Shown: positions 14,909 through 57,827 of the stretch, piece by piece
Position numbering within the stretch: the stretch's first letter is position 1
Layout: the number at the start of each line of letters is the position of its first letter
Origin: Planctomycetota bacterium
Lineage (GTDB): Bacteria; Planctomycetota; Phycisphaerae; Phycisphaerales; SM1A02
Direction of reading: 5' to 3'
Assembly: GCA_036336805.1 (NCBI GenBank)
Contig: JAYZFJ010000056.1
Coordinates: forward strand, 5,014 to 69,013
DNA: 64,000 bases
Translations under genes and position numbers: made by a program
The notes under the pieces: model-generated
The model's input: the letters and a program-made list of their open reading frames with translations, nothing else
The model's database searches: none
What the model was told of the DNA's origin: nothing

Positions 14909-15055
14909 TGGCTTCTCGATGGCTACTGAGTGAATCGGACAGTTTCCCGAAACCCGTGGGGCTTCGTTCCTTCTCGTCCGGCAGTCCAGGTCCGCGCAGT
15001 CGATGTCGCTGCGTGAGTGCCCCTTCCTGGGAGGGCGGATGCAGCGAAAACGGCG

Positions 15056-15754
15056 GTGGAACTGCCGAATCAGGGTCTCGAGTCCATTCGCATCGAGGAG
15101 CTCGTGACGCCGGTGCGCCTCCAACGGGATGGTGCGCGGGCCGGTTTCATCGAGGTGGAGGGCGTGATCGACGGTGCCGATCCCGGCAACCGGCGGCCCG
15201 CTGGAACACATCCACCAGGCTTCGGCGTCAGGCAGGGCCTGAATCCACCGAGGCCTTCCTCAGCGGTTCAGGGGATGAATCATCGGGCTTGAGCGTGCGA
15301 ACTTGGCTCAAGAGACTCGTCAGAGCAGGCCGGGACCAGGTCGGACAGATCTCACGACGGACCTGCTGTCCGAAGGCAGACACGGTTACAGCTCGTGCAC
15401 GAACCACTCATGCTTCATCTTGGCACCCTGGGGGGCCTGGTTCCGGCTGTCGTATCTGTGCGGTTTCCTCGCACTGCTGGAGGAAACCGGGAAATCTGTC
15501 GGGCCTCATCCTGATTTGCCGTGACGAGTGATGGTGCGGGACCCGGAGGTCGCGCTGATTCATCCACTCAACCACGTGTTCCACGTCCTTGTGGAACAGA
15601 ACCAATTGTAGCGCAAACAACACGACTTGCAAGGGGGTGCTGCCGACTTGGCGGTGAAGGTGTCTTCCGAAACCTCTTGTTTCAAGGGGTTTGGTGAACT
15701 TCGAAATCTCGTTCTCCACCATGTCCACACCCGATGTCCATGCCGTGTGGAAAA
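15056..15754. other. cluster of DnaA-box-like motifs (candidate oriC / dnaA control region)
   Basis: TCCAC cores at 15211, 15244, 15563, 15580, 15715 and 15724. GTGGA cores at 15056, 15155, 15591 and 15747. The best 9-mers against TTATCCACA/TGTGGATAA are TGTGGAAAA (15746-15754, 8/9), ATGTCCACA (15721-15729, 7/9), TCATCCACT (15560-15568, 7/9) and TGTGGAACA (15590-15598, 7/9). No convincing ORF lies in 14909-15806. Confidence 0.5.
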
Positions 15755-18223: not shown

Positions 18224-19285
18224 ATGCTCGTTGACCATGCCACCATCCTCATCCGTTCCGGAAAGGGTGGCGATGGCTCCAACAGCCTGCATCGGGAAAA
18301 GTTCATTCCCAAGGGTGGTCCGGATGGCGGCGACGGTGGAAAGGGTGGCGACGTCATTCTCGTTGGTGATCCACACCTGGACACGCTGGCCGCCTTTGCC
18401 AGACGTCGACTGCTGAAAGCCGAGGATGGTGCGCCGGGAAGCAAGAACGAATGCTACGGCCGTTCGGGTGAGGACCTGCTGGTTCGGCTCCCTCTTGGCT
18501 GTCAGGTCTTCGACGACCACAGCGGGGAGCTGATCGTGGACATCGTGGAGGCGGAGCAGACCTTCGTGGCCGCTCCCGGTGGTCGGGGAGGACGGGGGAA
18601 CGTCCATTTCGCCACGCCCACCCACCAGACGCCTCGTGAATTCGAGAAGGGGGGCGAGGCGGTCGAGCGGGCGATTCGCCTTGAACTCAAGCTGATCGCC
18701 GACGTCGGACTGGTCGGCCTGCCCAATGCCGGCAAGTCCACCATGCTTTCCCGGGTCTCTCAGGCTCGTCCCAAGGTCGCCGACTACCCGTTCACGACGC
18801 TGGGTCCGCAGCTGGGGATGATCGACCTGCCCGGGGAACGGCGCGTGGTGATCGCGGATCTTCCGGGTCTGATCGAGGGGGCCGCCTCCGGTGCCGGACT
18901 CGGTCATGATTTCCTGCGACACGTGGAGCGGACGACCGTGCTGCTCCACCTGCTCGACTGCGCGCCGCCCGACGGCTCCGATCCAGCGGCGAACTACCAT
19001 GCCATCCGTCACGAACTGGCGAGTTTCAGCTCGGTCCTGGCGGAGAAGCCGGAATTGGTCGCCTTGAACAAGATCGACCTGATTCCGAAGGACCAGCGGG
19101 AGTCCTTCATCGAACGGGTGGCGGGGGCGATCGGCTTTCCCAGGGGCGCTCGACCTCATCTGGTGTCCGGGGTCAGTGGTGAAGGCGTCCCCGAGCTGCT
19201 CGAATCGTGCTGGCACGAACTGGTCGAGGTTCGCGAGGCGGGACATCACTCGGCCCGTGGTGCCTGGGGCGCCGGTTCGTCATGA
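18224..19285 (+). CDS. obg: GTPase Obg/CgtA
   Basis: Obg fold MLVDHATILIRSGKGGDGSNSLHREKFIPKGGPDGGDGGKGGDV, then G-domain motifs GLPNAGKST, DLPGLIEGA and NKIDL. Start chosen at ATG 18224. Confidence 0.95.
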   Translation: MLVDHATILIRSGKGGDGSNSLHREKFIPKGGPDGGDGGKGGDVILVGDPHLDTLAAFARRRLLKAEDGAPGSKNECYGRSGEDLLVRLPLGCQVFDDHSGELIVDIVEAEQTFVAAPGGRGGRGNVHFATPTHQTPREFEKGGEAVERAIRLELKLIADVGLVGLPNAGKSTMLSRVSQARPKVADYPFTTLGPQLGMIDLPGERRVVIADLPGLIEGAASGAGLGHDFLRHVERTTVLLHLLDCAPPDGSDPAANYHAIRHELASFSSVLAEKPELVALNKIDLIPKDQRESFIERVAGAIGFPRGARPHLVSGVSGEGVPELLESCWHELVEVREAGHHSARGAWGAGSS

Positions 19286-20832
19286 ACGACGTACCGGCCA
19301 CCCGTCGGCGATCCCTGAAGTCCAGGCTGTTGCTGGGAGTCGGTGTTCTCGCGGCCGGACTCTTCGCGGGGTGGGTTGTCCTGGTCTCCGTCTGGGGACA
19401 ACAGACGCTCGGGCCCCAGCGAAACTTCCTCGAGGAGCGGAATGCGCGCATCGATTCCATCCCCCCGGATCAGCGGGCCTGGCCTCGGCTCAGAGATGCG
19501 GTGGACGAGCTTGGGTTCATTCCCTGGGAATCATTCGATCGTCAGGTCGAGGAGCTCACGGGGTCGGCCGAATCGACGGAACGGGATCGCTGGCTGCTTG
19601 AGAACGAGGAAGGACTGGCGTCGCTCCGGTCCGCGCTTCGACGTCCCCGGCTCGGACTCGCCTGGTACCCGGAGGTTCCGCCGGTCGTGGATCACTTCCT
19701 CCTGCTGAGTCCCGAGGAGCGACGGAGTCTGCCCCTCGCCAGGCCTGCGGATGCATCCTTCGTCGATGACGAGTCACTTCTGATCAACCTTCCCCTGCGG
19801 TTTCCCAAGCCGATGCGGGCGATGGCGCGTCTGCTCGAGGCCGATGCCCTCCGGGCGGCTCGAACGGGTGCTCCCGAGCAGGCCGTCGATGACTGCATCG
19901 CGATCCTGGACCTGGCCCGGCTCTGCCAGCAGGATCCGATGCTGATCGCCCAGTTGAGTGCCTTGTCGATCCGATCGCTGGCCCAGCAGACGATCCTCGA
20001 AGTGGTTTCCACCGAGTCCGTGCGTTCCAATGCACGGCAGCTCGCTCGGCTTGCCGAGGCGCTGTCGGTCCCCATTTCGCCGGTGTCTCTCGACGGGGAG
20101 CGCATGATCCTCGAGGACATCGTCCAGAGGTTCTACACCGACGACGGAGCCGGTGATGGATACCTCATGGCGTCCAAGCTTTCCAACGCCGCGTACCTGA
20201 CCAACCTGCAGCTGCCGGTCCTCTTCCTGCCCGACTCCTCTCTGCACAGCCATGTACTGCAGCCGGTCGTGGCGAGATCCGCCGGCTCGCGCCGGGAGGT
20301 TCTCGATGCCTTCGAGGAGCTGGCATCCGAGCACCAGAGGCTCGGGAACGCAGATCCCTGGCAGATCGACTGGACGCGGTTGGAGGCGATGCAGGATGGC
20401 TTGAAGTCCGATGGATTGCTTGGAGCCCTCCATCGATTTCCCTTGCCGCTTCTGGCTCCGAATTACGAGTCACTCGTCCTGGCCAGCCAGAGCAGTCGGT
20501 TCAGGCACGAGTGCACGAAGCTGGTGGTCGCGGTGCATCGGTTCCGAGTCCGGACCGGGCAATGGCCCGACCGCCTCGAGCAGCTGCAACCTGACCTGCT
20601 GACCGAGGTGCCGCGAGATCCCTACGACGGAGCCTTCCTTCGATACCAGCTCCGGGGCGACCAGCCGGTCATCTGGTCGATCGGAACCGACTCCATCGAC
20701 AACGGGGGGGTCTTCGACGAGCCCACCGGGCCGTTCGCCCTGAAGCGAGTGTCCCCGCAGGATGGTGGCGTGACTTCGGCGGCGGTGGACCAGCGGCTCT
20801 GGCCCGCCTCGATACCTCCGAGCCGCGAGTGA
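19282..20832 (+). CDS. hypothetical membrane-anchored protein
   Basis: ATG 19282 overlaps the obg stop (ATGA). It has an N-terminal TM LLLGVGVLAAGLFAGWVVLVSVW and a large extracytoplasmic helical domain. No motif recognised. Confidence 0.65.
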   Translation: MNDVPATRRRSLKSRLLLGVGVLAAGLFAGWVVLVSVWGQQTLGPQRNFLEERNARIDSIPPDQRAWPRLRDAVDELGFIPWESFDRQVEELTGSAESTERDRWLLENEEGLASLRSALRRPRLGLAWYPEVPPVVDHFLLLSPEERRSLPLARPADASFVDDESLLINLPLRFPKPMRAMARLLEADALRAARTGAPEQAVDDCIAILDLARLCQQDPMLIAQLSALSIRSLAQQTILEVVSTESVRSNARQLARLAEALSVPISPVSLDGERMILEDIVQRFYTDDGAGDGYLMASKLSNAAYLTNLQLPVLFLPDSSLHSHVLQPVVARSAGSRREVLDAFEELASEHQRLGNADPWQIDWTRLEAMQDGLKSDGLLGALHRFPLPLLAPNYESLVLASQSSRFRHECTKLVVAVHRFRVRTGQWPDRLEQLQPDLLTEVPRDPYDGAFLRYQLRGDQPVIWSIGTDSIDNGGVFDEPTGPFALKRVSPQDGGVTSAAVDQRLWPASIPPSRE

Positions 20833-30530: not shown

Positions 30531-32516
30531 TCAGCTCGAAGTGGTCGCCGGGGCATCCGAGGCATCGGCGGTCGTCGAGTCATCAGACTGCTCGCCGTCC
30601 TCCACGCTGATTCCAGCGTCCTCCGCTTCCGCGGCCGCCTGGGTCTCACGATCCATGTAGCGGAAGTTGTGACGCTTGCGCAGGGCCTTCAGGGAGAACG
30701 TTTCCAGCAGGTCGCTGGCCGTCTCCTCGCTCGCCATGATTCCGAAGAGTCCCTCGGAGTCCGCGAGCTCGCGCCAGCTCTCCTGAGTCATCGGCTTCAG
30801 GGAGGCGATCTGCACACCGATCACCGAGAGGCTCTTCTCGTCCGGAATGAAGAAGATCCGCTTCGAGGCGGGAAGGTCGCCGGCCGGAATCGTGTAGTCG
30901 AGGCCCTCGCTCCGCTCGATGATCTGATTGACCACGGTGCTTTCCGGAGCCAATCCGAGGATCCTGGTGGGGGACTTGATGCCGTAGCGGAGGAACTGCG
31001 GATTCGCTTCGGCGATGTTCGCCTGGAACCTGACCTCGACGTCGTTCTCCTCCGCGATCGTCTGGAGTCCGGACGCCGCGGCCCTGGCTTCGAGCTGGGG
31101 GATCTCCGCGACCAGCTTCTGGTACCGCTCAAGGTTGCGGACGTCCCGCTCGACCTGGTCCCGCACCTCGTCGAGGTTCGCGGGAGGATGCTCCCGATCG
31201 GCCTTGATCAGGCGGAATATGTAGAGGTTTCCGGGGTTGTCGGTGAAGACCGGACTCGAGACGCCCAGCTGCGAGGGAATCACGTCCTGCTTCCCGAATT
31301 CGGTGGCGGACATCACGTATTCACCGGGAGAGATCGCCCGGGTTCCGAACTTGTTGGACCGACTCTGGCCGAGGCCCTCGATGGCATTGATCTCGCTGGC
31401 GGTCAGCAGGCCGTCGGAGACTCCGAGGGACGGGGGGGTGTCGAGACCGAACTCCTCGACCATCGCGGTCGCCAGTTCGTCGTAGTTGGCGCGCTGCTCC
31501 GCCCAGTCCTCGGGCAGCGAGTATTCGCCACCGGTTCGGGACAGTCCCCGCCGCGGCAGCTGGATCTGGTCGTTGAGGAACTTCGCGATCTCCTTCATCC
31601 GATCGTCCAGCTCCTCCTGGCCAAGGATGCGTCGGACGGAGTTCTCGTAGTCCTTGAATGCGGGCTTCTCACCACCGACGGCGATCGCACCGAAGCGTTC
31701 CGGATCCTGCATGAACGCCTTGCGCATCGTGATGGGGTCGATTCCCGAACCGTTCGTCAGGGCTTCGGAGACCTGTTCGCGATCGACCATCAGCCATTCA
31801 AGTTCCGCGCGGTCCTCGAACTTGTATCCGAACCCGGTGTCCCCATCCCCGGCAAGAACTTCACGGTAGGTCGTGAACTGGGTCTGCAGGGATTCCTCGT
31901 CCGGTGCTTCCGATGATTCCTCGTCACTGTCTTCCGGGGCCCGCTTCGCATCGAGGATGAGCAGGTCCGCGTCGACGGCCATGCCGAGTTTCGCCGCGGT
32001 GTTCTGGAGACGCACGTCTGAGAAACGAGCCGCGGTCTGGAACTGCTGCGAAAGCCGTCCCACACCCTGGATCTTGGCCAGGGTCTGCAGGGCCTTCTGG
32101 GTGTTGAAACCGGAGGTTCCCTGCATGCGGGCGATGAGCGTGGTCGGGCTCACCGCACCGTTGGACTGCAGGCTCATCGATTCGGCCATTCGTTCGCCGG
32201 ACCCGGGGCCTCCGACCAGTCCCGCCTGTTCGGCTTCCCGGCTCAGCAGATACCAGTAGGCGGGGTCGTTCGCCGCACCCAGTGCGTTGATGAACGGATT
32301 GCTCGCCAGTTCGAGGATGCGCAGCTCGGCCTGCAGTTCCTGGAGGCGTCCGGTGGTGACGGTTTCGCCATCGCCGACTTCCGCCCAGTCGCCACCGGTC
32401 TGCGCCGCGTACTGGGAGAGGCCTTGAATCGCCTGAGGGAGGAGGAAGCTGATGAGGAGGATCGTGCCGAAGACCGCGAGGATCCAACCCTGGTATTGAC
32501 GGAGGAACTTGAACAT
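30531..32516 (-). CDS. PpiD/SurA-N-like periplasmic chaperone, membrane-anchored
   Basis: N-terminus MFKFLRQYQGWILAVFGTILLISFLLPQ is the typical PpiD N-terminal anchor. It is followed by a long helical domain and an acidic C-terminal tail. A parvulin domain is not obvious by eye. Confidence 0.6.
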   Translation of the reverse strand: MFKFLRQYQGWILAVFGTILLISFLLPQAIQGLSQYAAQTGGDWAEVGDGETVTTGRLQELQAELRILELASNPFINALGAANDPAYWYLLSREAEQAGLVGGPGSGERMAESMSLQSNGAVSPTTLIARMQGTSGFNTQKALQTLAKIQGVGRLSQQFQTAARFSDVRLQNTAAKLGMAVDADLLILDAKRAPEDSDEESSEAPDEESLQTQFTTYREVLAGDGDTGFGYKFEDRAELEWLMVDREQVSEALTNGSGIDPITMRKAFMQDPERFGAIAVGGEKPAFKDYENSVRRILGQEELDDRMKEIAKFLNDQIQLPRRGLSRTGGEYSLPEDWAEQRANYDELATAMVEEFGLDTPPSLGVSDGLLTASEINAIEGLGQSRSNKFGTRAISPGEYVMSATEFGKQDVIPSQLGVSSPVFTDNPGNLYIFRLIKADREHPPANLDEVRDQVERDVRNLERYQKLVAEIPQLEARAAASGLQTIAEENDVEVRFQANIAEANPQFLRYGIKSPTRILGLAPESTVVNQIIERSEGLDYTIPAGDLPASKRIFFIPDEKSLSVIGVQIASLKPMTQESWRELADSEGLFGIMASEETASDLLETFSLKALRKRHNFRYMDRETQAAAEAEDAGISVEDGEQSDDSTTADASDAPATTSS

Positions 32517-43401: not shown

Positions 43402-43476
43402 GGCCCCATCGTCTAGTCAGGTCCAGGACACCAGGTTTTCATCCTGGGAACAGGGGTTCGAATCCCCTTGGGGTCA
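43402..43476 (+). tRNA. tRNA-Glu (anticodon UUC)
   Basis: GGCCCCATCGTCTAGTCAGGTCCAGGACACCAGGTTTTCATCCTGGGAACAGGGGTTCGAATCCCCTTGGGGTCA folds into a cloverleaf by hand. The anticodon loop is TTTTCAT. CCA is not encoded. Confidence 0.92.
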
Positions 43477-43480
43477 TGCA

Positions 43481-43519
43481 GGGCGCGGTTCCTTCACCGG
43501 AACCGCGCCCGATTTTTTT
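43481..43519 (+). terminator. rho-independent terminator after tRNA-Glu
   Basis: Perfect 12-bp stem gggcgcggttcc / ggaaccgcgccc with loop ttcacc, followed by gaTTTTTTT. Confidence 0.8.
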
Positions 43520-43560
43520 CACTCCAATCCCTGGAAACCGTGCACATCCAGGAGTCGCAC

Positions 43561-44304
43561 GTGGCTCGAATCCCGGTCATTTCAAGCCTCCTCCTCGGCC
43601 TGCTCGCTTCGGTCGCCCTCGCCCTTCCGCCCCTGGATGCGACCAGCCGGGCGATTCTCACCACCGCGGTGGATGATCGCGACCACCAGGAAGCCGCCTT
43701 CTCGGTGCTGGTCGAGGAGCTGCTGCGACGAGCGGGCGAACCAGCCGGGTCCACCGGCTCCCTCCTCCCGGCGGAGACCTGGGCGATTCTGGTGGAGTCT
43801 CCGGATGACCATCGCGGCATCCCGCTGGTCCTCGAGGGTCGAGTGGAGCAGCGCACCGAGCTTGCGCGGCCCTGGGACACCATGTGCGAACTGTTCGTTC
43901 GTCTGCCGGACGAACGCGTGGTGGCGGTCTTCGTCCCGGCGAGCGACGAGGGTTCGCCCGGCGATCGGGCCCGCTTCGAGGGTCGCTTCTACAAGCGGCT
44001 CTCCGCGGTCGCTCGCGACGGCATGCTCCGTCGCTATCCCGCCGTCGTGGCGCGACGGGTTCCCGCCGCGTCGCGGCAACCGATGGCGTACGCACTGCCC
44101 GCGCTGCTCCTCGGGCTCGGGTTCTGCTGGATCGTGCTCAGGCGTCTGGCGGGGGCATCACGCACTCGGCGCCGGATGCCCGCCGGGCCGCGGGTGGTGG
44201 GGGGAAGTTCCCCCAATGACCCCGAACTTCCGGACGAACCCGCCAGGGCACTCGACGTACTTCGCTCCAGACACGATCATCCTGACAAGGGAGGTGCCTC
44301 GTGA
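43561..44304 (+). CDS. hypothetical exported/membrane protein
   Basis: GTG 43561 has AGGAG 6 nt upstream. It has the signal peptide ARIPVISSLLLGLLASVALALP and a C-terminal TM LPALLLGLGFCWIVL. The track start (43468) lies inside the tRNA and was rejected. Confidence 0.5.
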   Translation: MARIPVISSLLLGLLASVALALPPLDATSRAILTTAVDDRDHQEAAFSVLVEELLRRAGEPAGSTGSLLPAETWAILVESPDDHRGIPLVLEGRVEQRTELARPWDTMCELFVRLPDERVVAVFVPASDEGSPGDRARFEGRFYKRLSAVARDGMLRRYPAVVARRVPAASRQPMAYALPALLLGLGFCWIVLRRLAGASRTRRRMPAGPRVVGGSSPNDPELPDEPARALDVLRSRHDHPDKGGAS

Positions 44305-45431
44305 GCACCATCGATGTACGACTTGAGGATCGCTCCTACCAGGTCTCCGTGGAGGCCGGCATTCGTTCGCGCTGTGGTGCCATGCTGAGGGCGCTGGTCG
44401 GCGATGCTCCCGGGCGCAGGGTCCTGCTGATCGCGGACGAAGCGGTCTCGGAGACCTTCGCGGAAGACGTTGCCGCCTCTCTGGAAGAGGCGGGGTTCGG
44501 CCTTGCGTTCGGAACCGTCGAGGCACACGAGACCAACAAGTCACTTCCCGCGCTCTCCGCACTTCTGGAGGCGGCGGCACGGGAACACATCGATCGATCG
44601 AGCGTGGTGGTTTCGGTGGGTGGGGGCATCGTCGGCGACCTCGCGGGATTCGTCGCCGCCAGCTGGTTGCGGGGCATCGCCCTCGTCCACGTGCCGACGA
44701 CCCTGCTCGCAATGGTGGACGCCGCGATCGGGGGCAAGACCGGAGTGAACCTGCCACTGCCCGACGGAACCCTCGGGAAGAACCTGGTGGGCGCCTTCTG
44801 GCAGCCGCTCGCAGTGCTGAGTGATCCGGAAGTGCTTGCGAGCCTGCCTCGCCGCGAACTGGCCTGCGGACTCGCCGAGTGCATCAAGCACGGACTGATC
44901 GCCGATTGGGCGCTGCTCGATGAACTGGCCGCGCTCGCACCCTCGATCCTGGCCGGGGAGGTCTCGGCCTGCGAAGACCTGGTTCGGCGCAGTGCCGCGG
45001 TCAAGGCGGGGATCGTCGGCCTCGATGAACGTGAGCAGGCGGGCGGCGAGGCGACGTCCGCTCGGGCATTCCTCAATCTCGGGCACACCTTCGGGCATGC
45101 GATCGAGACGGTGCCCGAGCTCGGTCTCAAGCACGGCGAAGCGGTCGCGATCGGCCTGGTCGCGGCCGGTGCCTGTGCGCGCGCTCTCGGAAGCTGGTCC
45201 GAGGAGGAATCCCGTCACCTCGAGGCGACGCTCGAAGCATGCGAACTGCCCACTCGGCTGTCCGCGAAATGCAGCGTCGGCGAATTGATCGAGCGCATGG
45301 GCTGGGACAAGAAGGTCCGAAACGGCACTCTGACGATCGTGGTGCCCGACGGGCGTGGCTCGGTCAGGCTTCATCCGGATCCGACCCCCGAGCTTCTGGC
45401 CGAGGCCTGGCACGCCGTGGGCGCCGACTGA
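44301..45431 (+). CDS. aroB: 3-dehydroquinate synthase
   Basis: VSVGGGIVGDLAGFVAASWLRGIALVHVPTTLLAMVDAAIGGKTGVN and GKNLVGAFWQP are present, together with the metal ligands ...HGLI...HTFGHAIE. Confidence 0.93.
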   Translation: MSTIDVRLEDRSYQVSVEAGIRSRCGAMLRALVGDAPGRRVLLIADEAVSETFAEDVAASLEEAGFGLAFGTVEAHETNKSLPALSALLEAAAREHIDRSSVVVSVGGGIVGDLAGFVAASWLRGIALVHVPTTLLAMVDAAIGGKTGVNLPLPDGTLGKNLVGAFWQPLAVLSDPEVLASLPRRELACGLAECIKHGLIADWALLDELAALAPSILAGEVSACEDLVRRSAAVKAGIVGLDEREQAGGEATSARAFLNLGHTFGHAIETVPELGLKHGEAVAIGLVAAGACARALGSWSEEESRHLEATLEACELPTRLSAKCSVGELIERMGWDKKVRNGTLTIVVPDGRGSVRLHPDPTPELLAEAWHAVGAD

Positions 45432-45495
45432 CCGAAGGCGGATATTGCAGACGATCCTCCGGGTGTTCCGATAAGAGGACTCTGGAGGTTCCGTC

Positions 45496-46890
45496 GTGCG
45501 GACGATCGCGTTGGTCAATCAGAAGGGTGGCTGTGGCAAGACGACCACGGCGATCAATCTCAGCGCTGAATTCGCCCATCGCTCATTGCGAGTGCTGCTG
45601 ATCGATCTCGATCCTCAGGGACACTGCGCCGCGGGGCTCGGGGTACCGGAGGGTTCCATCACCCGGGGCATCGAGGACGCCCTCGAGGCGAACCTCACCT
45701 ACGAGCCGGACCTGGTGGACGAGATGATCTGGGAGGTCGGCAGCGGTCTGAACCTGATCCCGAGCACCGTCCGCCTCACCAATTTCGAGAGCGCCGACCA
45801 CGAGCACGCGGAGGATCATGACCGGGATCGCCGACTGCTGCGGGTGCTGGAGCTGGTCGAGGATCGCTTCGATGTCTGCATCGTCGACTGTCCGCCTGCG
45901 ATTGGCTGGTTGACCTTCAACGCCCTGCGCGCCGCCGATGAGACCCTGATTCCGGTCGAGACCGGCTACTTCGCCCTCAAGGGTGCGGTGCGCCAGGCGA
46001 AGACGATCGACACCGTCGTGAAGCGCATCGGCCGTCCTCTGGACTTCTTCCTCCTGCCGACCATGCACAACGAGCGCTCCGCCCGTTCGGAGAACATCCT
46101 CTCCGCGATGCAGAGCCGCTTCGGCGACCAGATGGCACCACGCGTGATCCGGGAACACGAAGCGCTGAGGGAAGCGGCCAGCATGGGCCAGCCGATCCAG
46201 CAGTTCGCGCCCGATTCCGCGGCGGCGGAGGACTTCGCGGGGCTTGCGGAATGGATTCTCGGCCACCAGCAGACGACCGTCGCCACCGAGCAGGCTCGGT
46301 TGCGTCTGGAATCGGCTGATGCGGCCACCCTTCGCGAGGAGGATCCTCGCCCCGCATCGCAGGAGCCCGCCCCGGCCTCGATCAAGGAATCCCAACCCTC
46401 GACCCCCGTCCCCGAGCGAAACGAGCGGGTGCAGGCGGTGCTCCAGCGGGTGGGCCGGACCGAGGGCACCGCGGACAAGGGTGTGGTGTTCGACGTCCAG
46501 CGGCTCCCCGAAGGCGTGCTGGACCGAGTGCGTTCCGGTTCGAAGGGCCTCCAGTCCCTGGTCGTCGACCCCTACGAGGCCAGTGTGGATTCTGCCGGTG
46601 GAGGTCCTCGTTTCGGCGTGTTTCCCACGGCGAAGGGCGCGTGTTTTCGTCAACCCGCTTCCCTGGGAACCCGTCTGGCGATCACCGGTGAGTTCAACCA
46701 GTGGGATGCCGATGGGGAGGCGATGACCTGCACTGCCGACGGCGTGCATGAGGTCATCCTGCCACTTGCCCCCGGAACCTATCGCTACCGCCTTATCGTT
46801 GACGGCGCTCCGACCGCGGATCCCCACGGTCAGGCCTCGGTGGAGGGCGACGCGACCACCTGCGTGTTCGAGATACCCGCCTCCTCCTGA
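45496..46890 (+). CDS. ParA/Soj-family ATPase fused to a C-terminal CBM48 / AMPK-beta glycogen-binding-like domain
   Basis: GTG start with GGAGG 7 nt upstream. The deviant Walker A is NQKGGCGKTT, with LLIDLDPQG and VDCPP. A ~115-aa low-complexity linker follows. The C-terminus then reads LAITGEFNQWDADGEAMT...GVHEVILPLAPGTYRYRLIVDGAPTADP (about nt 46609-46884). Confidence 0.85.
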   Translation: MRTIALVNQKGGCGKTTTAINLSAEFAHRSLRVLLIDLDPQGHCAAGLGVPEGSITRGIEDALEANLTYEPDLVDEMIWEVGSGLNLIPSTVRLTNFESADHEHAEDHDRDRRLLRVLELVEDRFDVCIVDCPPAIGWLTFNALRAADETLIPVETGYFALKGAVRQAKTIDTVVKRIGRPLDFFLLPTMHNERSARSENILSAMQSRFGDQMAPRVIREHEALREAASMGQPIQQFAPDSAAAEDFAGLAEWILGHQQTTVATEQARLRLESADAATLREEDPRPASQEPAPASIKESQPSTPVPERNERVQAVLQRVGRTEGTADKGVVFDVQRLPEGVLDRVRSGSKGLQSLVVDPYEASVDSAGGGPRFGVFPTAKGACFRQPASLGTRLAITGEFNQWDADGEAMTCTADGVHEVILPLAPGTYRYRLIVDGAPTADPHGQASVEGDATTCVFEIPASS

Positions 46891-46924
46891 CCCTTCGATC
46901 ACCCCAGCCAGCTGGACCCCGGCC

Positions 46925-48484
46925 ATGACCTCCAACGATCCCATCAACGACATCATCAACGGATTCGTGTCCCAGCCGGAGCTCACGGAGTGCTCGGGCT
47001 CGACCCTGAGTCCGGCCCGCGCGAAGATGACGATCGACCGTGATCGACGGTCACATCCCCGCGCATCCACGAGCACCGATGATGATTCGACCCAGGCGTC
47101 GAAGATCCCACCCCTTGGCCTGGAGCTTCTCTTCCTCGGCAACCTGCCGCATTGGGCGAAGCTCTGGGCACCCGAGTACGCCCGTCGGGTCGCCGCCGAG
47201 GATGGTCCGGTCGCGCTCGTCCAGCTCGGGTACAAGACCTGCACGGTGCAGGTCTTCGGGGGCTGCGCCGGGACGACCGATCTTCCGGAAGGCTCCTCCG
47301 ATCGAATCCAGGACATCGTCAACTGGCTCGCCTTGCACGTGAACCGGGTGCTCATCGAACCGCGGGCGCTCGACGACGACGAGACGATTCTGGAGACGGA
47401 GCTCCCCGTCACGATCATGACCGGTGCCGACGAAGCCGCGAAGATCGAGGCCTACCGTCGCTCGAAGGAGCTGGTGGAGGTCGCCCGGGCCGCGGAGTTG
47501 CCCGCGCCCCGGATGGGGATCGTGGTTGCCGGAACTCGGGAATCCGAAGCCCGGATGATCGCCGCCCGCATCGGTGAGACCGCCGAGCGATTCCTGAAGT
47601 TCGCCCTTCCGTTGATTCAGGTCATCCCCTCGATGGGGCCGGATTCGACGGGCTCCAGCGCCGGTGACTGGCACGACGTCGAGGTGGGACAGACCTACGG
47701 AACCGAGCGTTTCGTGGCTGAACTCCGGCGTGCCTCCCTGGACCGGACCTGCGGTTCCTCCGAAGAGCCCGGTGATCTGCCGGAAGCCGAGGCCATCGAA
47801 CTCGCAGCGGGCACGGCCGACGATTTGCTCGACTCCCGTGGAGACGTGACCGAGTCCGCACCCGGACTCGATCCCCTCTCGGGGGTTCTGGAGTCGCTCG
47901 CCGAGGTCCCGGTTGCGGGCCCTGATGCACGCGAGCTTGAAGCATTGCAGGATGAACGTCGTGCACTCGAGGAGCGATTCGAGCCGGTTGCCGCTTCCGA
48001 GGCCGCGCGTCCCACCGAACCTCAGCCCGTTCCCGCGGAAGCCACCACCCGGGTGCTCGAGGACGAAGGGGGCCTTGGCCCCGACGTCGAGCGATCCGAG
48101 GAAGCCTTCGATTCGCGGGGATGCCTCGCCAACCTCATTCCGGGATTGACCGTGATCGATCTGCCCTGTCCGGTCGATCAGCGGATCGAACTCGCGCTCG
48201 ATGAGGATCACCACCTCCACCTCGTCGCGCATGAATCCTCATTCCGTTCGCTGCGAGCGGCGGAAGCCTGGGCGATCACCAACCGAAGCCTCCTCGAGGC
48301 GGTGCTTCCGGGGCTCGCGCCATTCGAGCAGCGGGGGGTCCGCCTCGATCTGCTGGTGGAGGATGCCGCGGAAGCCAGCGACCTCCAGAAGACCGGGCTC
48401 TTCCTGCATCTGCTGGAGGAAGTCGACGGTCGACCTCGCACCCTCGCGCTGAACAACCGGCGCAGTGCCTTGAACCTCGGTTGA
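46925..48484 (+). CDS. hypothetical acidic protein; N-terminal half resembles a ParA/MinD fold with degenerate P-loop
   Basis: ATG 46925 lies 35 nt after the ParA-like gene. LELLFLGNLPHWAKLW...GPVALVQL sits in the Walker-A position, and ELPVTIMTGADEAAKIEAYRRSKELV resembles the MinD/ParA switch region. The C-terminal half is acidic. These similarities were judged by eye only. Confidence 0.55.
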   Translation: MTSNDPINDIINGFVSQPELTECSGSTLSPARAKMTIDRDRRSHPRASTSTDDDSTQASKIPPLGLELLFLGNLPHWAKLWAPEYARRVAAEDGPVALVQLGYKTCTVQVFGGCAGTTDLPEGSSDRIQDIVNWLALHVNRVLIEPRALDDDETILETELPVTIMTGADEAAKIEAYRRSKELVEVARAAELPAPRMGIVVAGTRESEARMIAARIGETAERFLKFALPLIQVIPSMGPDSTGSSAGDWHDVEVGQTYGTERFVAELRRASLDRTCGSSEEPGDLPEAEAIELAAGTADDLLDSRGDVTESAPGLDPLSGVLESLAEVPVAGPDARELEALQDERRALEERFEPVAASEAARPTEPQPVPAEATTRVLEDEGGLGPDVERSEEAFDSRGCLANLIPGLTVIDLPCPVDQRIELALDEDHHLHLVAHESSFRSLRAAEAWAITNRSLLEAVLPGLAPFEQRGVRLDLLVEDAAEASDLQKTGLFLHLLEEVDGRPRTLALNNRRSALNLG

Positions 48485-49585: not shown

Positions 49586-50059
49586 ATGTCGACGTCGTGT
49601 ACCGAACCGCTTCCCGTGCCCGCCTCGCCCGGCGCCCTTCGTCTCAAGAGACGACTGGTGGCGGGGCTCGTGGCGGCGGGCTGCGCGACTCTGCTGCTGC
49701 TGGCAGCCTGGATGCAGCCGTCCTCGGCGGGGTTGGGCACCCACCAGCAGTTGGGGCTCGCCCCCTGCGGTTGGATCGTGTACGGCGGGATTCCCTGCCC
49801 GTCCTGTGGGATGACCACCTCCTTCGCGCATGCCGCCGACGGCAACTTCCTGGGTGCGCTCCAGGCGCAGCCCGCCGGTGCGGTGTTGGCGTTTCTCACC
49901 GCATGCACGCTGGTCATCGCATCCTGGCAGCTGGTCACCGGCGAGCGTCTGCTCGGGTTCTGCACGGACCGCATCGGTGCCCGCTTCTTCATGGGCTTCG
50001 GCGCCCTGGTGGTTCTCGCCTGGATCTACAAGATTCTGGTCTTTCGAGGAGTCCTCTGA
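49586..50059 (+). CDS. DUF2752-like membrane protein
   Basis: The CPSCGMTT motif (CPxCGxT) is flanked by TM helices, as is typical for DUF2752. Confidence 0.65.
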   Translation: MSTSCTEPLPVPASPGALRLKRRLVAGLVAAGCATLLLLAAWMQPSSAGLGTHQQLGLAPCGWIVYGGIPCPSCGMTTSFAHAADGNFLGALQAQPAGAVLAFLTACTLVIASWQLVTGERLLGFCTDRIGARFFMGFGALVVLAWIYKILVFRGVL

Positions 50060-50730
50060 TGTCCCCACGCTTCATTCGATCGGCTCTGCTTCTCTCCCTG
50101 CTCTGCGGCTTAAGTCTGCTGCTCGGCGGGTGCTTCGTCCCCGCCCTGGCGGGCGCGATCGGCCAGAACATCGAGCGCTACAAGAAGATCGAGGTGCTCG
50201 CCGAGTACGAGGGACTGGACAACGAGACCGTCGCCGTCGTGATCCAGTGTGAACCATCGATGCTCTACGAGTATCCGCAGATCTACGGAACGATGGCGAT
50301 GAACATCTCGCGCCGTCTCCAGGAGAACGTCCCCGGCATCAAGGTGCTTGCCTACCAGCAGGTCATGCAGTGGCAGTACCAGACACCGAGCTGGTCGATG
50401 CTCGCCTACGGCGAGATCGCCGAGGAACTCGGGGTCGAACGCGTGGTCCTGGTCGAGGTCTACGAATTCCGCCTCCATCCCGAGGGAAATCGCTACCTGT
50501 GGGACGGAGCCTGTGCGGGATCGGTCGGAGTCATCGAGCGGGATGGCTGGGATCCCGACAGCTTCGCCAAGACCTGGGACATCTCGGTGAAGTTTCCCGA
50601 CGTCACCGGCGTGGGACGAGAAAGCGCCACCGAATCGCAGATCCAGATGGGTGTGCTCGCCAAGTTCGTCGACGAGGTGTCCTGGCTCTTCTACCGCCAC
50701 GTCGAGGACAAGTACCCCGATCAGATCTGA
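50059..50730 (+). CDS. lipoprotein (paralogue 1)
   Basis: The ATG overlaps the upstream stop (TGATG). A lipobox is present (LLLGGC). It is related by eye to the next gene (IAEELGVERVVLVEVYEF vs IAREAGVKQLIFIEIETF). Confidence 0.65.
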   Translation: MSPRFIRSALLLSLLCGLSLLLGGCFVPALAGAIGQNIERYKKIEVLAEYEGLDNETVAVVIQCEPSMLYEYPQIYGTMAMNISRRLQENVPGIKVLAYQQVMQWQYQTPSWSMLAYGEIAEELGVERVVLVEVYEFRLHPEGNRYLWDGACAGSVGVIERDGWDPDSFAKTWDISVKFPDVTGVGRESATESQIQMGVLAKFVDEVSWLFYRHVEDKYPDQI

Positions 50731-50779
50731 TCGGCCCCCCATCCGTCTCCTTCCCTCTCGCCTTCCTCAGCTCCTCCAG

Positions 50780-51508
50780 ATGAAACCAGGTGCCCGAGTG
50801 AACACGAACCCTGCCGCCCAACCCTTCACCGCCACCCTCATCGGCCGCATGGTCGTGGGGCTCCTCCTGAGCGTGGTCATGCTGCTTCCCGCCTGCAACA
50901 TCCTGATCCCCGTCTCCTACGCGATCGATGGGAAGGGGCAGGTCGAGGCGGAGCACGAACTCGAGCAGATCAAGACCCTGGTCTTCGTGGACGACAGCCT
51001 CAACCTGCTGCCCCGGCAGGTGCTGAAGGTGCGCCTGGCCGAGGCGGTGTCCAACGACCTGGTCATCCGGGGGCTGATTCCGAACACCGTCAATCCCGGT
51101 GATGCGATGGCGATGGTCCGTTCGCGGGATCGAAGCGGCCAGCAGATGTCGATGCAGTCGATCGCACGTGAGGCCGGCGTCAAGCAGCTGATCTTCATCG
51201 AGATCGAGACCTTCGAGTCCACCGTGCGCAACACCCAGTTGCGTCCGAACGCCTCCTGCAGCATCCGGGTCATGCACTTCGACAAGGGAGGGCGTGTCTA
51301 CCCCGTGACCTCGATCCAGGGACCGAACAACGCCGGGGACCGCATCGTGGAGGTCCAGCTGCGGGAGGTCGCCCCGGAGAAGGCGATCTCTCCCTCCGAC
51401 CGTCGCAAGGTGGAGCAGCAGCTCATCGGCAAGCTGACCGCTTCGATCGTCAAGCTCTTCCGAAGCTACGATCGCCTCGAACTGGGTGAGAACCTTGGCG
51501 TCAAGTGA
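50780..51508 (+). CDS. lipoprotein (paralogue 2)
   Basis: Internal ATG at 50780. A signal peptide with lipobox is present (MLLPAC). It shares its architecture with 50059..50730. Confidence 0.65.
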   Translation: MKPGARVNTNPAAQPFTATLIGRMVVGLLLSVVMLLPACNILIPVSYAIDGKGQVEAEHELEQIKTLVFVDDSLNLLPRQVLKVRLAEAVSNDLVIRGLIPNTVNPGDAMAMVRSRDRSGQQMSMQSIAREAGVKQLIFIEIETFESTVRNTQLRPNASCSIRVMHFDKGGRVYPVTSIQGPNNAGDRIVEVQLREVAPEKAISPSDRRKVEQQLIGKLTASIVKLFRSYDRLELGENLGVK

Positions 51509-52526
51509 CCTCGGGCTCTCGCGGACTTCCCTGGTTCACCTCGTCGATTCCGAGGCGTTGCCGGGTCGGATCCGTCGGGTTGAACTGATTCGTCGCGGCA
51601 CCGATTCCCCGGTGGTGGTGGTCGGTCCGTTCGAGGGTGAATGCCGCTGCGCGGGATTCGGTTTGCAGGCCCACGGATCATCACTGCCCCGTACCCTCGG
51701 CACCGTGCTTTGCGGTCTCGACGTCGGTCCCGGCCGGGCCCTGCCGTGCAGCTGGTCCTATCGGGTGGCGCGCAGCGTCTCGGAGTTCTGCCGCGAGCAA
51801 CTGCTGATCGCGAGCGGTCCTCCCTCTCCCCTCGCCGTACGCGAGCGCCTGGAGGGACTGTACGTGATCGCTCCCGACGAGTGTTCGGCGAATGCCTGGC
51901 AGCGTCTCGGTGCCCTCGACACCCGGGTGCTCCCGGCGTGCGGTTTTCCCGATCGGGCCCCGACCGTTCCGACCGCTGCGCCGGAGGCCCTGCGGGTCGG
52001 GATCGTCTGCGATGAAGCGCAGACCGAGGAGGAGGCGCTGCTGATGCTGCACCGCTTCGGGGTGGTGGCCCTGACGAAGAAACCCTTCTTCGCTTGTCTC
52101 AGCGCCGACTCGCCGCACGTTGGCGCGATGATGCGCTACGCACGGCACGTCGGCATCGAATCGTCCTTCGAGCTTCTCGATGAATCGGGGTTCCCCGGCG
52201 AGATCGACGTGGCGATGGTGGTGGTGGAGGATGCCGCCCGCTCCAGTGAACAGGTGCTGGATCTGTGCGCCCGGGGGATCGTGGTGATCGCCTACTCCGC
52301 GAGGGCGCCGATCGACGATTCGATCTCGCTGCGGGAACACGGAATCATCGAATGTCCGGCGGGCGTCACCAACGCCGGGTCGGTGCACCTGCTGGCGCTG
52401 CACACCGAGCCCGATCTCCTGGAATCCGCCCGAAAGGCGGCGTTCCGGCTGGGGGTCGGACTGCCCCCCGATGGCTGGAAGGCCCGGTTCGGCGAACTGG
52501 TCGGGTCCCTGATCAGCGGGTCCTGA
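51486..52526 (+). CDS. hypothetical protein, weak GT-B (glycosyltransferase C-terminal half)-like pattern
   Basis: Only a loose resemblance was seen (VLDLCARGIVVIAYSARAPIDDSI...EHGIIECPAG...LLESARKAAFR). The start is uncertain; GTG 51486 overlaps the upstream gene. Confidence 0.4.
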   Translation: MRTLASSDLGLSRTSLVHLVDSEALPGRIRRVELIRRGTDSPVVVVGPFEGECRCAGFGLQAHGSSLPRTLGTVLCGLDVGPGRALPCSWSYRVARSVSEFCREQLLIASGPPSPLAVRERLEGLYVIAPDECSANAWQRLGALDTRVLPACGFPDRAPTVPTAAPEALRVGIVCDEAQTEEEALLMLHRFGVVALTKKPFFACLSADSPHVGAMMRYARHVGIESSFELLDESGFPGEIDVAMVVVEDAARSSEQVLDLCARGIVVIAYSARAPIDDSISLREHGIIECPAGVTNAGSVHLLALHTEPDLLESARKAAFRLGVGLPPDGWKARFGELVGSLISGS

Positions 52527-54443: not shown

Positions 54444-54917
54444 GTGTTCTTTCTCGGCGAATACGAGCATTCAATCGACGCGAAACAGCGGCTGGCCATC
54501 CCCGCCGAGGTGCGCGACATGCTCCATCCCGAGATTCACGGATCGGCCTTCGTCGCGGCTCCGGGCGGCAATGGATCCCTCTGGCTCTGGCCGGCCAAGA
54601 CCTTCGAAACCCTCTCCAAGGAACTGGCCGGTTCGCTCCTGGGCAACGACGACCTCGACGACTTCGAACGCCTGGTCTACTCCCAGTCCGCTCGCGTCCC
54701 GCTGGATTCCGCCGGACGCATCCGGATCCCCGCCCGCCTGCTCGAGCAGTACGGCCTGGGGGGATCGGTGATGGTGCTGGGGGTACGGGATCATCTGGAA
54801 CTCATGACACCGGAGGCCTGGCGCGAGGAACAGTCGCGCCTGGAACCGGCTCGAACCGACATCTGGCGACGTGCCCGGCAGGCCATGGCCGAACGTCGCC
54901 CCAACAAGGACCAATGA
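54444..54917 (+). CDS. mraZ: transcriptional regulator MraZ
   Basis: GTG start with GAGGT 8 nt upstream. MFFLGEYEHSIDAKQRLAIPAEVR and a second SpoVT/AbrB-like repeat LDSAGRIRIPARLLEQ give the canonical duplicated DxxxR motif. Confidence 0.92.
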   Translation: MFFLGEYEHSIDAKQRLAIPAEVRDMLHPEIHGSAFVAAPGGNGSLWLWPAKTFETLSKELAGSLLGNDDLDDFERLVYSQSARVPLDSAGRIRIPARLLEQYGLGGSVMVLGVRDHLELMTPEAWREEQSRLEPARTDIWRRARQAMAERRPNKDQ

Positions 54918-56306: not shown

Positions 56307-57827
56307 ATGAGTTGCCCTCAACCTGCTGAATCCGTGCCCGATGGGACCTTCCGAACGCTGTCCGAGCGATGCACGGCGGAACGCGAATACGGGCGCTTGA
56401 GACCGTTGTTGCTCCTGGGCACCCTGCTTCTCTGGCTCATCGTGCACTCCGGGTGCGGCATGGGCGCTCCTCGAGACCCTTATTCGACCCTGAGCAACCC
56501 GCGGGCCTCCGCCAATGCCCAGCTGGACGCGCTCTCTCGATTGGACAGTCCCTCGCCCTCGCCGCGGTACCTCGACGAGCTTGCGCGACTCACCCTCTCA
56601 CCGAACCACCTTGAGTCGGTTCGCAAGGCCGCGTTCAACCGTCTGGCGAACGCCGACCCGGCCAGACTCGACGAAGTCCTCGCGACCACGCTCTCCCGCA
56701 TCCAGCCCACGGACTTCCGGGCCTGGGTGATCACCCGACTGGGCGAACTCGACCGCAAGCAGCTGACCAAGGCGATCATCCGATCCTGGGCGATGCCCAC
56801 GGCCTACTGGCTGCGGGATCGTGAGCGTCCCGAACCGACCGCCCTCGCGGTGATGTACGGAGGCAAGGACAAGGTGGCGGTGGTTCTGCTCGACACCCTG
56901 CTCAGCGCGAATCCTCTGGTGGAACGCAACCTTCGAATGCGCTGCTGGGAGCTGATGGTCGGACTCGACCAGGACGAGCTGCTGGTGGAGCTGGTCAACA
57001 GCGGCGACCTCGTCGGGACGGATCCGATGCTCCTCGACATGCGTTCCGCGATCAACGACCTGGGGGTGCTCCCCCGCAACAAGGAGGAGATCCTCTGGAT
57101 ACGGGAACTCCGCAAGGACGATCACGCCGACTACTGGACCAAGCTGTCCGAATCGTTGAGCCGCCTGGATGCGTCCCGTCGCCAGTCCCTGGCCGCACGC
57201 GAGTTGCCCCTGGTGGTCGCCGCGGACCGACACCGTTCCGATCTGCTGGGACTGGATCAGGCGGCTCTCTACGAACTGCTCGCCCGCCAGATCGAATCCA
57301 GCGGGCCTCGATACACGGCCGATTTCAGCGGGTGGGAGATCAAGATCACCGAACGACTCAACGATGTCCGCGACCAGGTCACCTGGGGGGATCTGGTCGC
57401 GATGGTGCTGGCTCGGGAAGCGTTGCAGGACCCGGCGTTCCTCGATCACCTCTTCGACCAGGCGGATCGGGACATGATCGACTCCACCACCGAGTACGGG
57501 GGGGTGATACGACTGGATCCCAAGGGGCGTTTCGAGCTGGTGGAGCACCCTCCGCGCTCCCGGATCTCGGATGAGAAGTACCTCGCCCCCCAGTCGCTGT
57601 TCGACGACGGGTACACCGCGCTCTTCCACTTCCACAACCACGCCCAGAACTACACCAATCGTCGGCACGCCGGCCCGCACATGGGTGATCTGCAGTACGC
57701 GGACGAGACTGGAGCCAACTGTCTGGTGTTCACGTTCGTGAAGCCGGATCTTCTGAACGTCGACTTCTACCGCCACGACTCGGTGGTGGTCGATCTGGGC
57801 ACCGCCCGACGTCCGGACCAGGGCTGA
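56307..57827 (+). CDS. lipoprotein with helical repeat region and a C-terminal HxH-containing (JAB/MPN-like?) domain
   Basis: GAGGAGGA lies 6 nt upstream of ATG 56307. A lipobox is present (LIVHSGC). The C-terminal sequence is TTEYGGVIRLD...LFHFHNHAQNYTNRRHAGPHMGDLQYA. Confidence 0.65.
   Translation: MSCPQPAESVPDGTFRTLSERCTAEREYGRLRPLLLLGTLLLWLIVHSGCGMGAPRDPYSTLSNPRASANAQLDALSRLDSPSPSPRYLDELARLTLSPNHLESVRKAAFNRLANADPARLDEVLATTLSRIQPTDFRAWVITRLGELDRKQLTKAIIRSWAMPTAYWLRDRERPEPTALAVMYGGKDKVAVVLLDTLLSANPLVERNLRMRCWELMVGLDQDELLVELVNSGDLVGTDPMLLDMRSAINDLGVLPRNKEEILWIRELRKDDHADYWTKLSESLSRLDASRRQSLAARELPLVVAADRHRSDLLGLDQAALYELLARQIESSGPRYTADFSGWEIKITERLNDVRDQVTWGDLVAMVLAREALQDPAFLDHLFDQADRDMIDSTTEYGGVIRLDPKGRFELVEHPPRSRISDEKYLAPQSLFDDGYTALFHFHNHAQNYTNRRHAGPHMGDLQYADETGANCLVFTFVKPDLLNVDFYRHDSVVVDLGTARRPDQG

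Follow-up and report, generated by a model that had tools for sequence, protein, structure and literature searches.

A ParA-type ATPase fused to a carbohydrate-binding module

The present analysis concerns two adjacent genes in a 64 kb stretch of chromosomal DNA (the window, meaning the whole of this stretch), which has a G+C content of 62-68% and comes from a marine Planctomycetota metagenome-assembled genome. Gene 1 (45496-46890, 464 amino acids (aa), GTG start), assigned from its open reading frame (ORF), its translation and Pfam matches, encodes a fusion of a ParA-type ATPase with a carbohydrate-binding module (CBM) of the CBM48 type. Gene 2 (46925-48484, 519 aa, ATG start), assigned from its ORF and translation, encodes a partner protein with an exact match in NCBI (VX641_07655). 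Both genes, and all the parts of them described below, are located on the forward (+) strand. Direct reading revealed a GGAGG Shine-Dalgarno-like motif (45484-45488, +) 7 nt ahead of the GTG codon of gene 1, and the distance between the stop codon of gene 1 and the ATG codon of gene 2 was 34 nt. An earlier note on this DNA had counted 35 nt here; the length that it gave for gene 2 was borne out. We tentatively favour the view that genes 1 and 2 form an uncharacterised ParA-type two-gene module of the class Phycisphaerae, with an ancestral tie to glycogen.

The N-terminal part of the gene 1 protein (aa 1-255, 45496-46260) was assigned to the ParA/Soj-like deviant-Walker-A ATPases on the basis of Pfam and PDB sequence matches. 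The Walker A (NQKGGCGKTT, aa 8-17, 45517-45546), Walker A' (LLIDLDPQG, aa 34-42, 45595-45621) and Walker B (VDCPP, aa 130-134, 45883-45897) motifs were all present, in agreement with the earlier note, which had described a complete deviant-Walker-A ParA within a protein of 464 aa. The strongest Pfam match was AAA_31 (aa 1-181, E 8.7e-42, 143.5 bits with a cut-off of 27), followed by CbiA (E 1.4e-16, 61 bits with a cut-off of 25.4) and CBP_BcsQ (aa 1-255, E 9e-14). The best PDB sequence matches were a ParA family protein (8ray_B, E 2.3e-36) and Thermus Soj (1wcv, E 3.7e-34), while the structures of McdA, MinD and FleN were matched much more weakly. Residue conservation was evaluated in an alignment of 33 family members, in which K10, G11, G12, G14, K15, T16, T17, D37, D39 and D131 were invariant, as were the family-specific motifs DPQxHCAxGLG, DRDRRL and PVETGyF. 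As judged from its sequence, gene 1 lacks none of the residues that a ParA/Soj ATPase needs to bind ATP and dimerise. None of the NCBIfam equivalogs reached its threshold for gene 1 (100.3 bits versus 180 for ParA_partition and 42 versus 212.9 for minD_bact), and the protein ends in the beta-sandwich of the CBM, unlike MinD, which ends in a membrane-targeting amphipathic helix. The Soj hallmark PRNVRLSEAPS was changed to IREHExLREAAS in the gene 1 family, with an invariant Arg placed two residues after the position that aligns with the DNA-binding Arg of Soj, which we take to be R189 in B. subtilis. No signal peptide or membrane segment was found in the gene 1 protein by inspection. The PADLOC search of gene 1 returned matches at the level of the P-loop alone (E 2.5e-4 and 1.8e-3), and a defence-island reading of the locus was rejected because of its core-genome synteny and the absence of any PADLOC defence-system match.

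The ATPase domain is followed by a variable linker (aa 256-370, 46261-46605), which differs in length and sequence between the family members and is probably disordered. It contains one conserved segment, ERVQAVLQRVG (aa 310-320, 46423-46455), corresponding to the family motif RAAELxxRV, in which R311 was invariant and R318 nearly so among the 33 homologues. This segment is presumably helical and amphipathic and could serve as a docking or dimerisation element.

The C-terminal part of the gene 1 protein (aa 371-464, 46606-46890) was matched by Pfam AMPK1_CBM (PF16561) at aa 391-449 with an E-value of 3.5e-8 and 34.0 bits, against a gathering score of 26.8, and carries the motif GEFNQW...YRYRLIVDGAPTADP at aa 398-443. 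A profile built from 25 C-terminal domains of the family was compared with the PDB, and the CBMs of AMPK beta-2 (6.5e-11) and beta-1 (1.1e-10) came out on top, followed by pullulanase, SIP2, the CBM48 of GlgB, LSF1 and SEX4 (to 5e-7). The CBM48/AMPK-beta domain that the earlier note had recognised from its residue pattern is, by these profile matches, a genuine module of this type. The HMMER alignment placed the family pattern GdFneW...YeYr...dgeW...nS on the AMPK pattern GSFNNW...HQYK...DGQW...NN. The glycogen contacts of AMPK beta-1 are presumably W100, K126, W133 and N150. Among 201 family CBMs, the equivalent of W100 was Trp in 200, that of K126 was Arg or Lys in 169, that of W133 was Trp in 144 and that of N150 was Asn in 127, and the full W-[RK]-W-N set was retained in 126 (63%). 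Such conservation suggests that the ligand-contact residues of the family CBM are under purifying selection. Glycogen is the single obvious alpha-glucan ligand for a protein devoid of a signal peptide and membrane segments.

The protein encoded by gene 2

The gene 2 protein has an isoelectric point of 4.5 and a net charge of -43, in line with the acidic character noted earlier. It had no Pfam, NCBIfam or PADLOC match, the 32 divergent members used for the evaluation of family conservation had no Pfam match either, and a PDB sequence search with the gene 2 profile gave no match. A word-indexed search returned 11 close relatives, all of marine origin and syntenic wherever their context was read. 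The profile search against 1.84 billion cluster representatives (50%-identity clusters) returned 1,164 of them at E<=1e-3 and 965 at E<=1e-10. The family is built of four parts, namely an N-terminal peptide, an N-domain, a variable acidic linker and a C-domain.

The N-terminal peptide DPINDIINGFVS (46937-46972) is conserved across the 32 divergent members with the consensus DPxDELAxLFLT. AlphaFold2 (AF2) predicted that aa 6-15 form a helix; the stretch after it was modelled with low confidence. The peptide is a candidate for the element that contacts ParA. The N-domain (aa 61-276, 47105-47752) was modelled with a predicted local distance difference test score (pLDDT) of about 90 and a MinD/FlhG-like alpha/beta fold of the SIMIBI class. 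When the full-length model was compared with the PDB using Foldseek, FlhG (4rz2) was the best match (E 1.7e-5, probability 1.0), followed by FleN (7ejw, 7e-4), dethiobiotin synthetase, Get3, HypB, BchL/NifH, MinD (1hyq, 1e-2) and ArsA. All the top matches of the N-domain belonged to the SIMIBI class, with template modelling scores of 0.35-0.49 when normalised to the target. The position of the P-loop, between strand 1 and helix 1, is occupied by GNLPHWAK (aa 72-79, 47138-47161), as had been read before, and the family consensus at this site reads G[HN]LPxxxG/A; it lacks a conserved Lys, and the Walker A signature GxxxxGK[ST] is missing. The most conserved motif of gene 2, VTIMTGADEAAKIEAYRRSK (aa 162-181, 47408-47467), was likewise already cited in the earlier note; its TGAD...Y...K residues follow a buried strand of the model, at what would be the site of the Walker B strand in MinD and FlhG. 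The invariant residues of the N-domain were G72, L74, P75, W81, A172, Y177 and G203. The model thus predicts a MinD/FlhG-like domain unable to bind nucleotide via a P-loop. The ParA/MinD likeness that had been proposed by eye was recovered as a predicted SIMIBI fold without a P-loop, but it found no support from sequence profiles, and sequence homology between gene 2 and ParA was rejected as undetectable (hhalign probability 0.2).

The linker of gene 2 (aa 277-400, 47753-48124) has a net charge of -24 and, apart from one predicted helix, ELEALQDERRALEERFE (aa 335-351), was modelled with a pLDDT below 50, which predicts disorder. It is variable across the family. The C-domain (aa 401-519, 48125-48484) was predicted by AF2 to be a compact alpha/beta domain, and when modelled alone from 30 sequences it reached a pLDDT of 94 and a predicted template modelling score of 0.88. 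Foldseek returned no significant structural match for it: the best in the PDB was EndoMS/NucS (E 0.045), and BFVD gave weak MmcB-like and PD-(D/E)XK proteins (E 0.016-0.1). The conserved residues of the C-domain were P416, D426, H432, W449 and H495, with no conserved Lys after D426. The weak convergence of two libraries on PD-(D/E)XK nucleases was not adopted as an identity, because the catalytic D...(D/E)xK motif is absent and the domain is acidic. Matches to Ppx/GppA, obtained in the Foldseek search with full-length gene 2, disappeared when the C-domain was modelled alone and were for this reason treated as spurious.

Distribution of the gene pair and its genomic context

The best 120 database matches of gene 1 were all full-length proteins with a ParA domain, AMPK1_CBM or CBM_48 was recorded in most of them, and all the named ones came from Planctomycetota or Phycisphaerae. 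A scan of GTDB species genomes yielded at least 566 ParA relatives, which probably include generic ParAs sharing the search motifs. Detailed counts were made by local searches with hidden Markov models in the best 80 of these at least 566 loci, of which 76 were assessable for gene 2. The 80 loci were labelled as Phycisphaerales, Phycisphaeraceae, Tepidisphaerales, Sedimentisphaerales and Anaerohalosphaeraceae, along with a few third-party assemblies labelled Pirellulales or Isosphaeraceae. The ParA ORF carried the CBM in 72 of the 80. A gene 2 homologue followed the ParA gene directly and in the same orientation in 56 of the 76 assessable loci, and the two genes also occurred together in all the close relatives; the ParA had a CBM in 50 of these 56 loci and lacked it in 6. 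The boundaries of the two ORFs, measured from stop to stop, were often within a few bases of each other or overlapping. Gene 2 was also adjacent in all the TARA relatives, with gene 2 identities down to about 25%. Across most of Phycisphaerae, the ParA gene is thus followed by gene 2 as a dedicated partner in the same orientation. In one locus (L007, 7427-8846; contig_17130, 1.03 Mb), the gene 2 homologue downstream of the ParA-CBM gene was split over three reading frames, owing either to its being a pseudogene or, more likely, to long-read indel errors.

The loci in which ParA-CBM has an intact glycan site and no adjacent gene 2 correspond to a Sedimentisphaerales-type clade; an alternative conserved neighbour or partner was looked for in these 20 loci and none was found. 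In the neighbour-joining tree of the ParA domain, the loci without gene 2 formed a separate group, and the sequences with a degraded glycan site or no CBM formed one contiguous group in which gene 2 was retained. The degraded sites in the latter group were of the types W-R-P-T (the clade of the window), W-R-E-A/V, W-R-T-A and W-Q-S-T. Taken together, the decay or loss of the CBM with retention of gene 2, and the existence of a clade without an adjacent gene 2, point to ParA and its partner as what looks like the core of the module in the lineage of the window, with glycogen binding ancestral but dispensable.

ParB and parS were looked for in the window and in 88 related loci, the latter out to a distance of about 7 kb. 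A ParB signature (GERRxRA box) was found in no genuine ORF of either set. The parS motif (TGTTNCACGTGAAACA) had a single match in the 64 kb window, at position 33460 and with 3 mismatches, a frequency that chance alone would explain, and no parS with up to one mismatch was present in the 88 loci. The earlier report that no ParB and no full parS lie nearby was thus upheld on a wider set. The gene that follows ParA is gene 2, which has no ParB domain.

The locus as a whole is a housekeeping neighbourhood conserved across Phycisphaerales, where aroB and the genes for an M19 dipeptidase, a DUF2752 protein and an amidohydrolase are kept across many of the same loci. The aroB gene (3-dehydroquinate synthase, 44301-45431, +; Pfam DHQ_synthase and DHQS_C) ends 64 nt ahead of gene 1 and stood immediately 5' of the ParA gene in 41 of the 88 related loci. 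No terminator-like sites were found in the intervals between aroB, gene 1 and gene 2, and this conserved upstream neighbour probably belongs to the same transcription unit as the two genes. A strong terminator-like hairpin was noted at 43481-43520 (+), with a 12-bp stem including 10 G-C pairs and followed by a T-run. It sits at the start of a long ORF (43468-44304) that precedes aroB, and there is no + strand gene upstream for it to terminate; the ORF represents a conserved hypothetical gene of 245-278 aa, and its real start is probably downstream of the hairpin. On the other side, the M19 dipeptidase gene is convergent with gene 2 and lies 10 nt beyond its end. A block at 49586-52526 (+) consists of the DUF2752 gene and, after it, three hypothetical genes without a Pfam match; the order of this block was kept beside the module in many Phycisphaerales loci, both in L001-L008 and in the tblastn survey.

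More distant parts of the window were inspected as well. The mraZ gene (54444-54917, +) is an orphan, with no rsmH, ftsL, ftsI or mur genes after it; it is followed by ORFs without a Pfam hit and then by an M48 peptidase gene and dapF, and the lineage is FtsZ-less. A link to the division and cell wall (dcw) cluster through mraZ was rejected, as mraZ precedes unrelated genes. The dnaA gene (13328-15211, -; Pfam Bac_DnaA, DnaA_N and Bac_DnaA_C) is located about 30 kb from the ParA-CBM module, and its presence makes the window probably origin-proximal. No parAB genes were found beside dnaA, and the GC skew gave no clear switch within the window. Three large ORFs were without a Pfam match at E<=1e-4 (11780-13300, -; 19207-20832, +; 30531-32516, -) and a fourth at E<=1e-3 (56307-57827, +); the four encode 506-661 aa and have a coding-like G+C content at the third codon position.

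A putative positioning module and its relation to known systems

If genes 1 and 2 function together, the ParA would bind ATP, dimerise and sit on a matrix, most likely the nucleoid, since the ATPase is Soj-like. The partner would contact it via the N-terminal peptide, or its pseudo-ATPase domain might mimic a ParA monomer, and it would control ATP hydrolysis and release, as ParB, McdB, MinE or PomXY do elsewhere. In the ancestral and commonest form of the module, the CBM would anchor the ATPase to a cytoplasmic alpha-glucan (glycogen), and this anchoring may spread glycogen granules along the nucleoid, or tether them there, and thereby secure their inheritance by both daughter cells; alternatively, the activity of ParA might be made dependent on glycogen. 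What the data show is the identity of the domains, the extent to which they are conserved and the linkage of the two genes; ATP-dependent dimerisation, matrix binding, stimulation by the partner and glycogen binding are the activities that we infer for such a module. In the lineage of the window, the ParA-partner core would probably act without glycogen binding, on another cargo: as the pair outlives the decay and loss of the CBM, its core role there is probably not glycogen handling. The earlier note had suggested a system positioning glycogen or polysaccharide cargo with the aid of a pseudo-ATPase adaptor. Its anatomy stands, and nothing in the analyses of the CBM, the predicted fold, the co-occurrence or ParB contradicted it, but as a statement of function it goes beyond the evidence. 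That the two genes represent the first ParA-type system for a polysaccharide storage granule, equipped with its own glycogen module and a pseudo-NTPase partner replacing the ParB/McdB adaptors, and coupling the placement or inheritance of glycogen, or a read-out of its status, to the nucleoid in FtsZ-less bacteria, is possible, though we consider it somewhat unlikely.

Several observations weigh against a glycogen-linked ParA module. The CBM of the window has W403, R432, P439 and T455 at the four contact positions, so that the equivalents of W133 and N150 are gone (2 of 4). With the four contacts conserved in most of the family and two of them missing here, carbohydrate binding is well supported for the family CBMs in general and doubtful for the window copy, which appears to be a degenerate descendant of the glycogen-binding type. 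In six related species the CBM is absent and gene 2 has nevertheless been retained, while 20 of the 76 assessable loci have a ParA-CBM, in all cases with the W-R-W-N set, and no gene 2 within 7 kb. Neither the conserved neighbourhood nor the 64 kb window contains a cargo gene or a gene of glycogen metabolism. Canonical systems divide the tasks, with the ATPase on the matrix and the partner on the cargo, and a cargo domain placed on the ATPase fits this scheme poorly. Where Soj has its DNA-binding Arg, the aligned residue varies between members and is not a basic one (HEALRE versus RNVRLSE), both proteins are acidic, and the likeness between the gene 2 and ParA families, whose alignments were compared with hhalign, is confined to the predicted fold. 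Much of the co-occurrence could also reflect synteny inherited in a single class, since conservation extends to aroB and further housekeeping neighbours.

The last point can be carried further, to a scenario in which the adjacency of gene 2 results from inherited synteny alone and the two proteins do not cooperate. The conservation of aroB, the M19 dipeptidase, DUF2752 and amidohydrolase genes across many of the same loci and the 20 ParA-CBM loci with no gene 2 nearby are consistent with it, but gene 2 remained directly downstream and co-oriented where the other downstream neighbours were undetectable (56 loci, versus 19 for the M19 dipeptidase), the two ORFs often lie a few bases apart or overlap, and the predicted fold of gene 2 falls into the same NTPase class as its neighbour. 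We find such a coincidence improbable. We are equally reluctant to consider gene 1 as simply the chromosomal ParA (Soj) of the class, bearing a lineage-specific C-terminal extension, with ParB-parS located elsewhere and gene 2 unrelated. Soj/ParA partition proteins are indeed what gene 1 most resembles in the PDB and NCBIfam, the presence of dnaA in the window places the locus near the origin, and database sources name the homologues 'chromosome partitioning protein'. However, the ParA_partition score of 100 bits is far from the cut-off of 180, parB was adjacent in 0 of 88 loci in comparison to 56 of 76 for gene 2, wherever the gene 2 family was detected in the GTDB loci (56 in all) it stood downstream of this ParA, and its conserved N-terminal peptide is of the kind used by ParA partners; moreover, the replacement of PRNVRLSEAPS by IREHExLREAAS leaves the R189-equivalent position not basic.

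Two further explanations assign the pair a different function. In one of them, the ParA and its partner are a spatial regulator of chromosome segregation or of the division site in the FtsZ-less Phycisphaerae, and the CBM is either an accessory glycogen or energy sensor, following the logic of AMPK beta, or a protein-interaction module, rather than a handle for cargo. The persistence of the pair with a degenerate or absent CBM argues for this, as do chromosomal Soj/ParA proteins being the closest solved structures and the conserved housekeeping neighbourhood; the distance of about 30 kb from dnaA keeps a segregation role alive and proves nothing. Published reviews also describe Phycisphaerales as dividing by binary fission in the absence of FtsZ, through a mechanism that is not known (PMC5147048). 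On the other hand, no tie to a division or segregation gene was detected, mraZ being without a dcw cluster, neither parS nor ParB was found in the window or the 88 loci, the strong retention of the four glycan contacts in most of the family points to real carbohydrate binding, and the Sedimentisphaerales-type clade has no adjacent partner. We therefore regard this explanation as unlikely, albeit one to be taken seriously. The other explanation holds that the module positions nothing, and that a ParA-like ATPase residing on glycogen organises or regulates glycogen enzymes, in the manner of BcsQ with cellulose synthase or of the MinD-like bacterial tyrosine kinases (BY-kinases) with polysaccharide export. 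It draws on the CBP_BcsQ match over aa 1-255, on weak NCBIfam matches to cellulose_yhjQ and to an eps tyrosine-autokinase, and on the relatedness of the CBM to those of AMPK beta, SEX4 and LSF1, proteins that bring enzymes of regulation to glycogen or starch. The BcsQ and BY-kinase scores were all far under the family cut-offs, the conserved neighbourhood has no glg or polysaccharide-synthesis genes, and the pair persists without the CBM; we give this explanation little credence. A ParA-type two-gene module with an ancestral glycogen tie is the interpretation that we retain, with the reservations given above.

The system had not been recognised as a described one in the earlier note, and we found no published description of a fusion of ParA with CBM48/AMPK-CBM, of ParA-dependent glycogen positioning or of the gene 2 family; the reviews of cell division in the Planctomycetes-Verrucomicrobia-Chlamydiae group do not mention the module. 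Bacteria generally rely on ParA/MinD ATPases to position chromosomes, plasmids, carboxysomes, chemoreceptor arrays and division sites, and we found no account of such an ATPase that acts on glycogen or bears any carbohydrate-binding module. The gene pair is of this known kind, and what sets it apart is the ligand-binding module on the ATPase itself, together with a pseudo-NTPase partner. It is widespread, occurring in several orders of Phycisphaerae, which are abundant in marine and freshwater settings, and its gene 2 family comprises more than 1,000 50%-identity clusters. If the proposed function were true, the module would open a way to study the organisation and inheritance of glycogen in bacteria, and it would be a case in which an inactive NTPase domain has become part of a ParA partner. 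Natural variants with an intact site, a degraded site, no CBM or no adjacent partner are ready for comparison.

Among the known systems, the Soj/ParA proteins of ParABS (Thermus thermophilus 1wcv, Helicobacter pylori 6iub) are the closest to gene 1 by ATPase sequence (E 1e-29 to 1e-36) and share with it the deviant Walker A with its signature lysine, Walker A' and Walker B. Gene 1 differs from them in having no adjacent ParB/parS, in scoring under the partition equivalog cut-off, in its altered PRNVRLSEAPS motif and in its extra 210-aa linker plus CBM48, and its partner belongs to an unrelated protein family. As a working analogy, the same two-gene logic is found in McdA-McdB (carboxysomes), PomZ-PomXY (division site) and ParC/PpfA-ParP (chemoreceptor arrays), where a ParA-like ATPase is likewise followed by a lineage-specific disordered and charged partner with a conserved terminal peptide. 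There, cargo binding is left to the partner and the ATPase has no cargo domain, whereas here the ATPase carries the CBM; McdA itself was a distant match to gene 1 (E 3e-11). We know of no pseudo-NTPase domain in the McdB, PomXY or ParP partners, unlike in gene 2.

The CBM is most similar by profile to those of AMPK beta-1/beta-2, SIP2, SEX4, LSF1 and the N-domain of GlgB, whose glycan contacts are kept in most members of the family. In comparison to these proteins, the module is fused to a ParA ATPase instead of a kinase scaffold, phosphatase or glycoside hydrolase, and in the window copy Pro and Thr stand in for W133 and N150. The gene 2 N-domain was best matched in predicted fold by FlhG, FleN and MinD, and FlhG likewise has a conserved N-terminal helix preceding this domain. 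Gene 2 differs from all three in that GxLP replaces GKGGxGKT, in the lack of detectable sequence similarity, and in its additional acidic linker and C-terminal domain, for which no significant structural match was obtained. To our knowledge, PhaM and PhaF have no sequence similarity to gene 1 or gene 2, and they are not ATPases. They are nonetheless a functional analogue of the proposed module, whose own link to glycogen is putative, as PhaM and PhaF tether polyhydroxybutyrate granules to the nucleoid so that both daughters inherit them.

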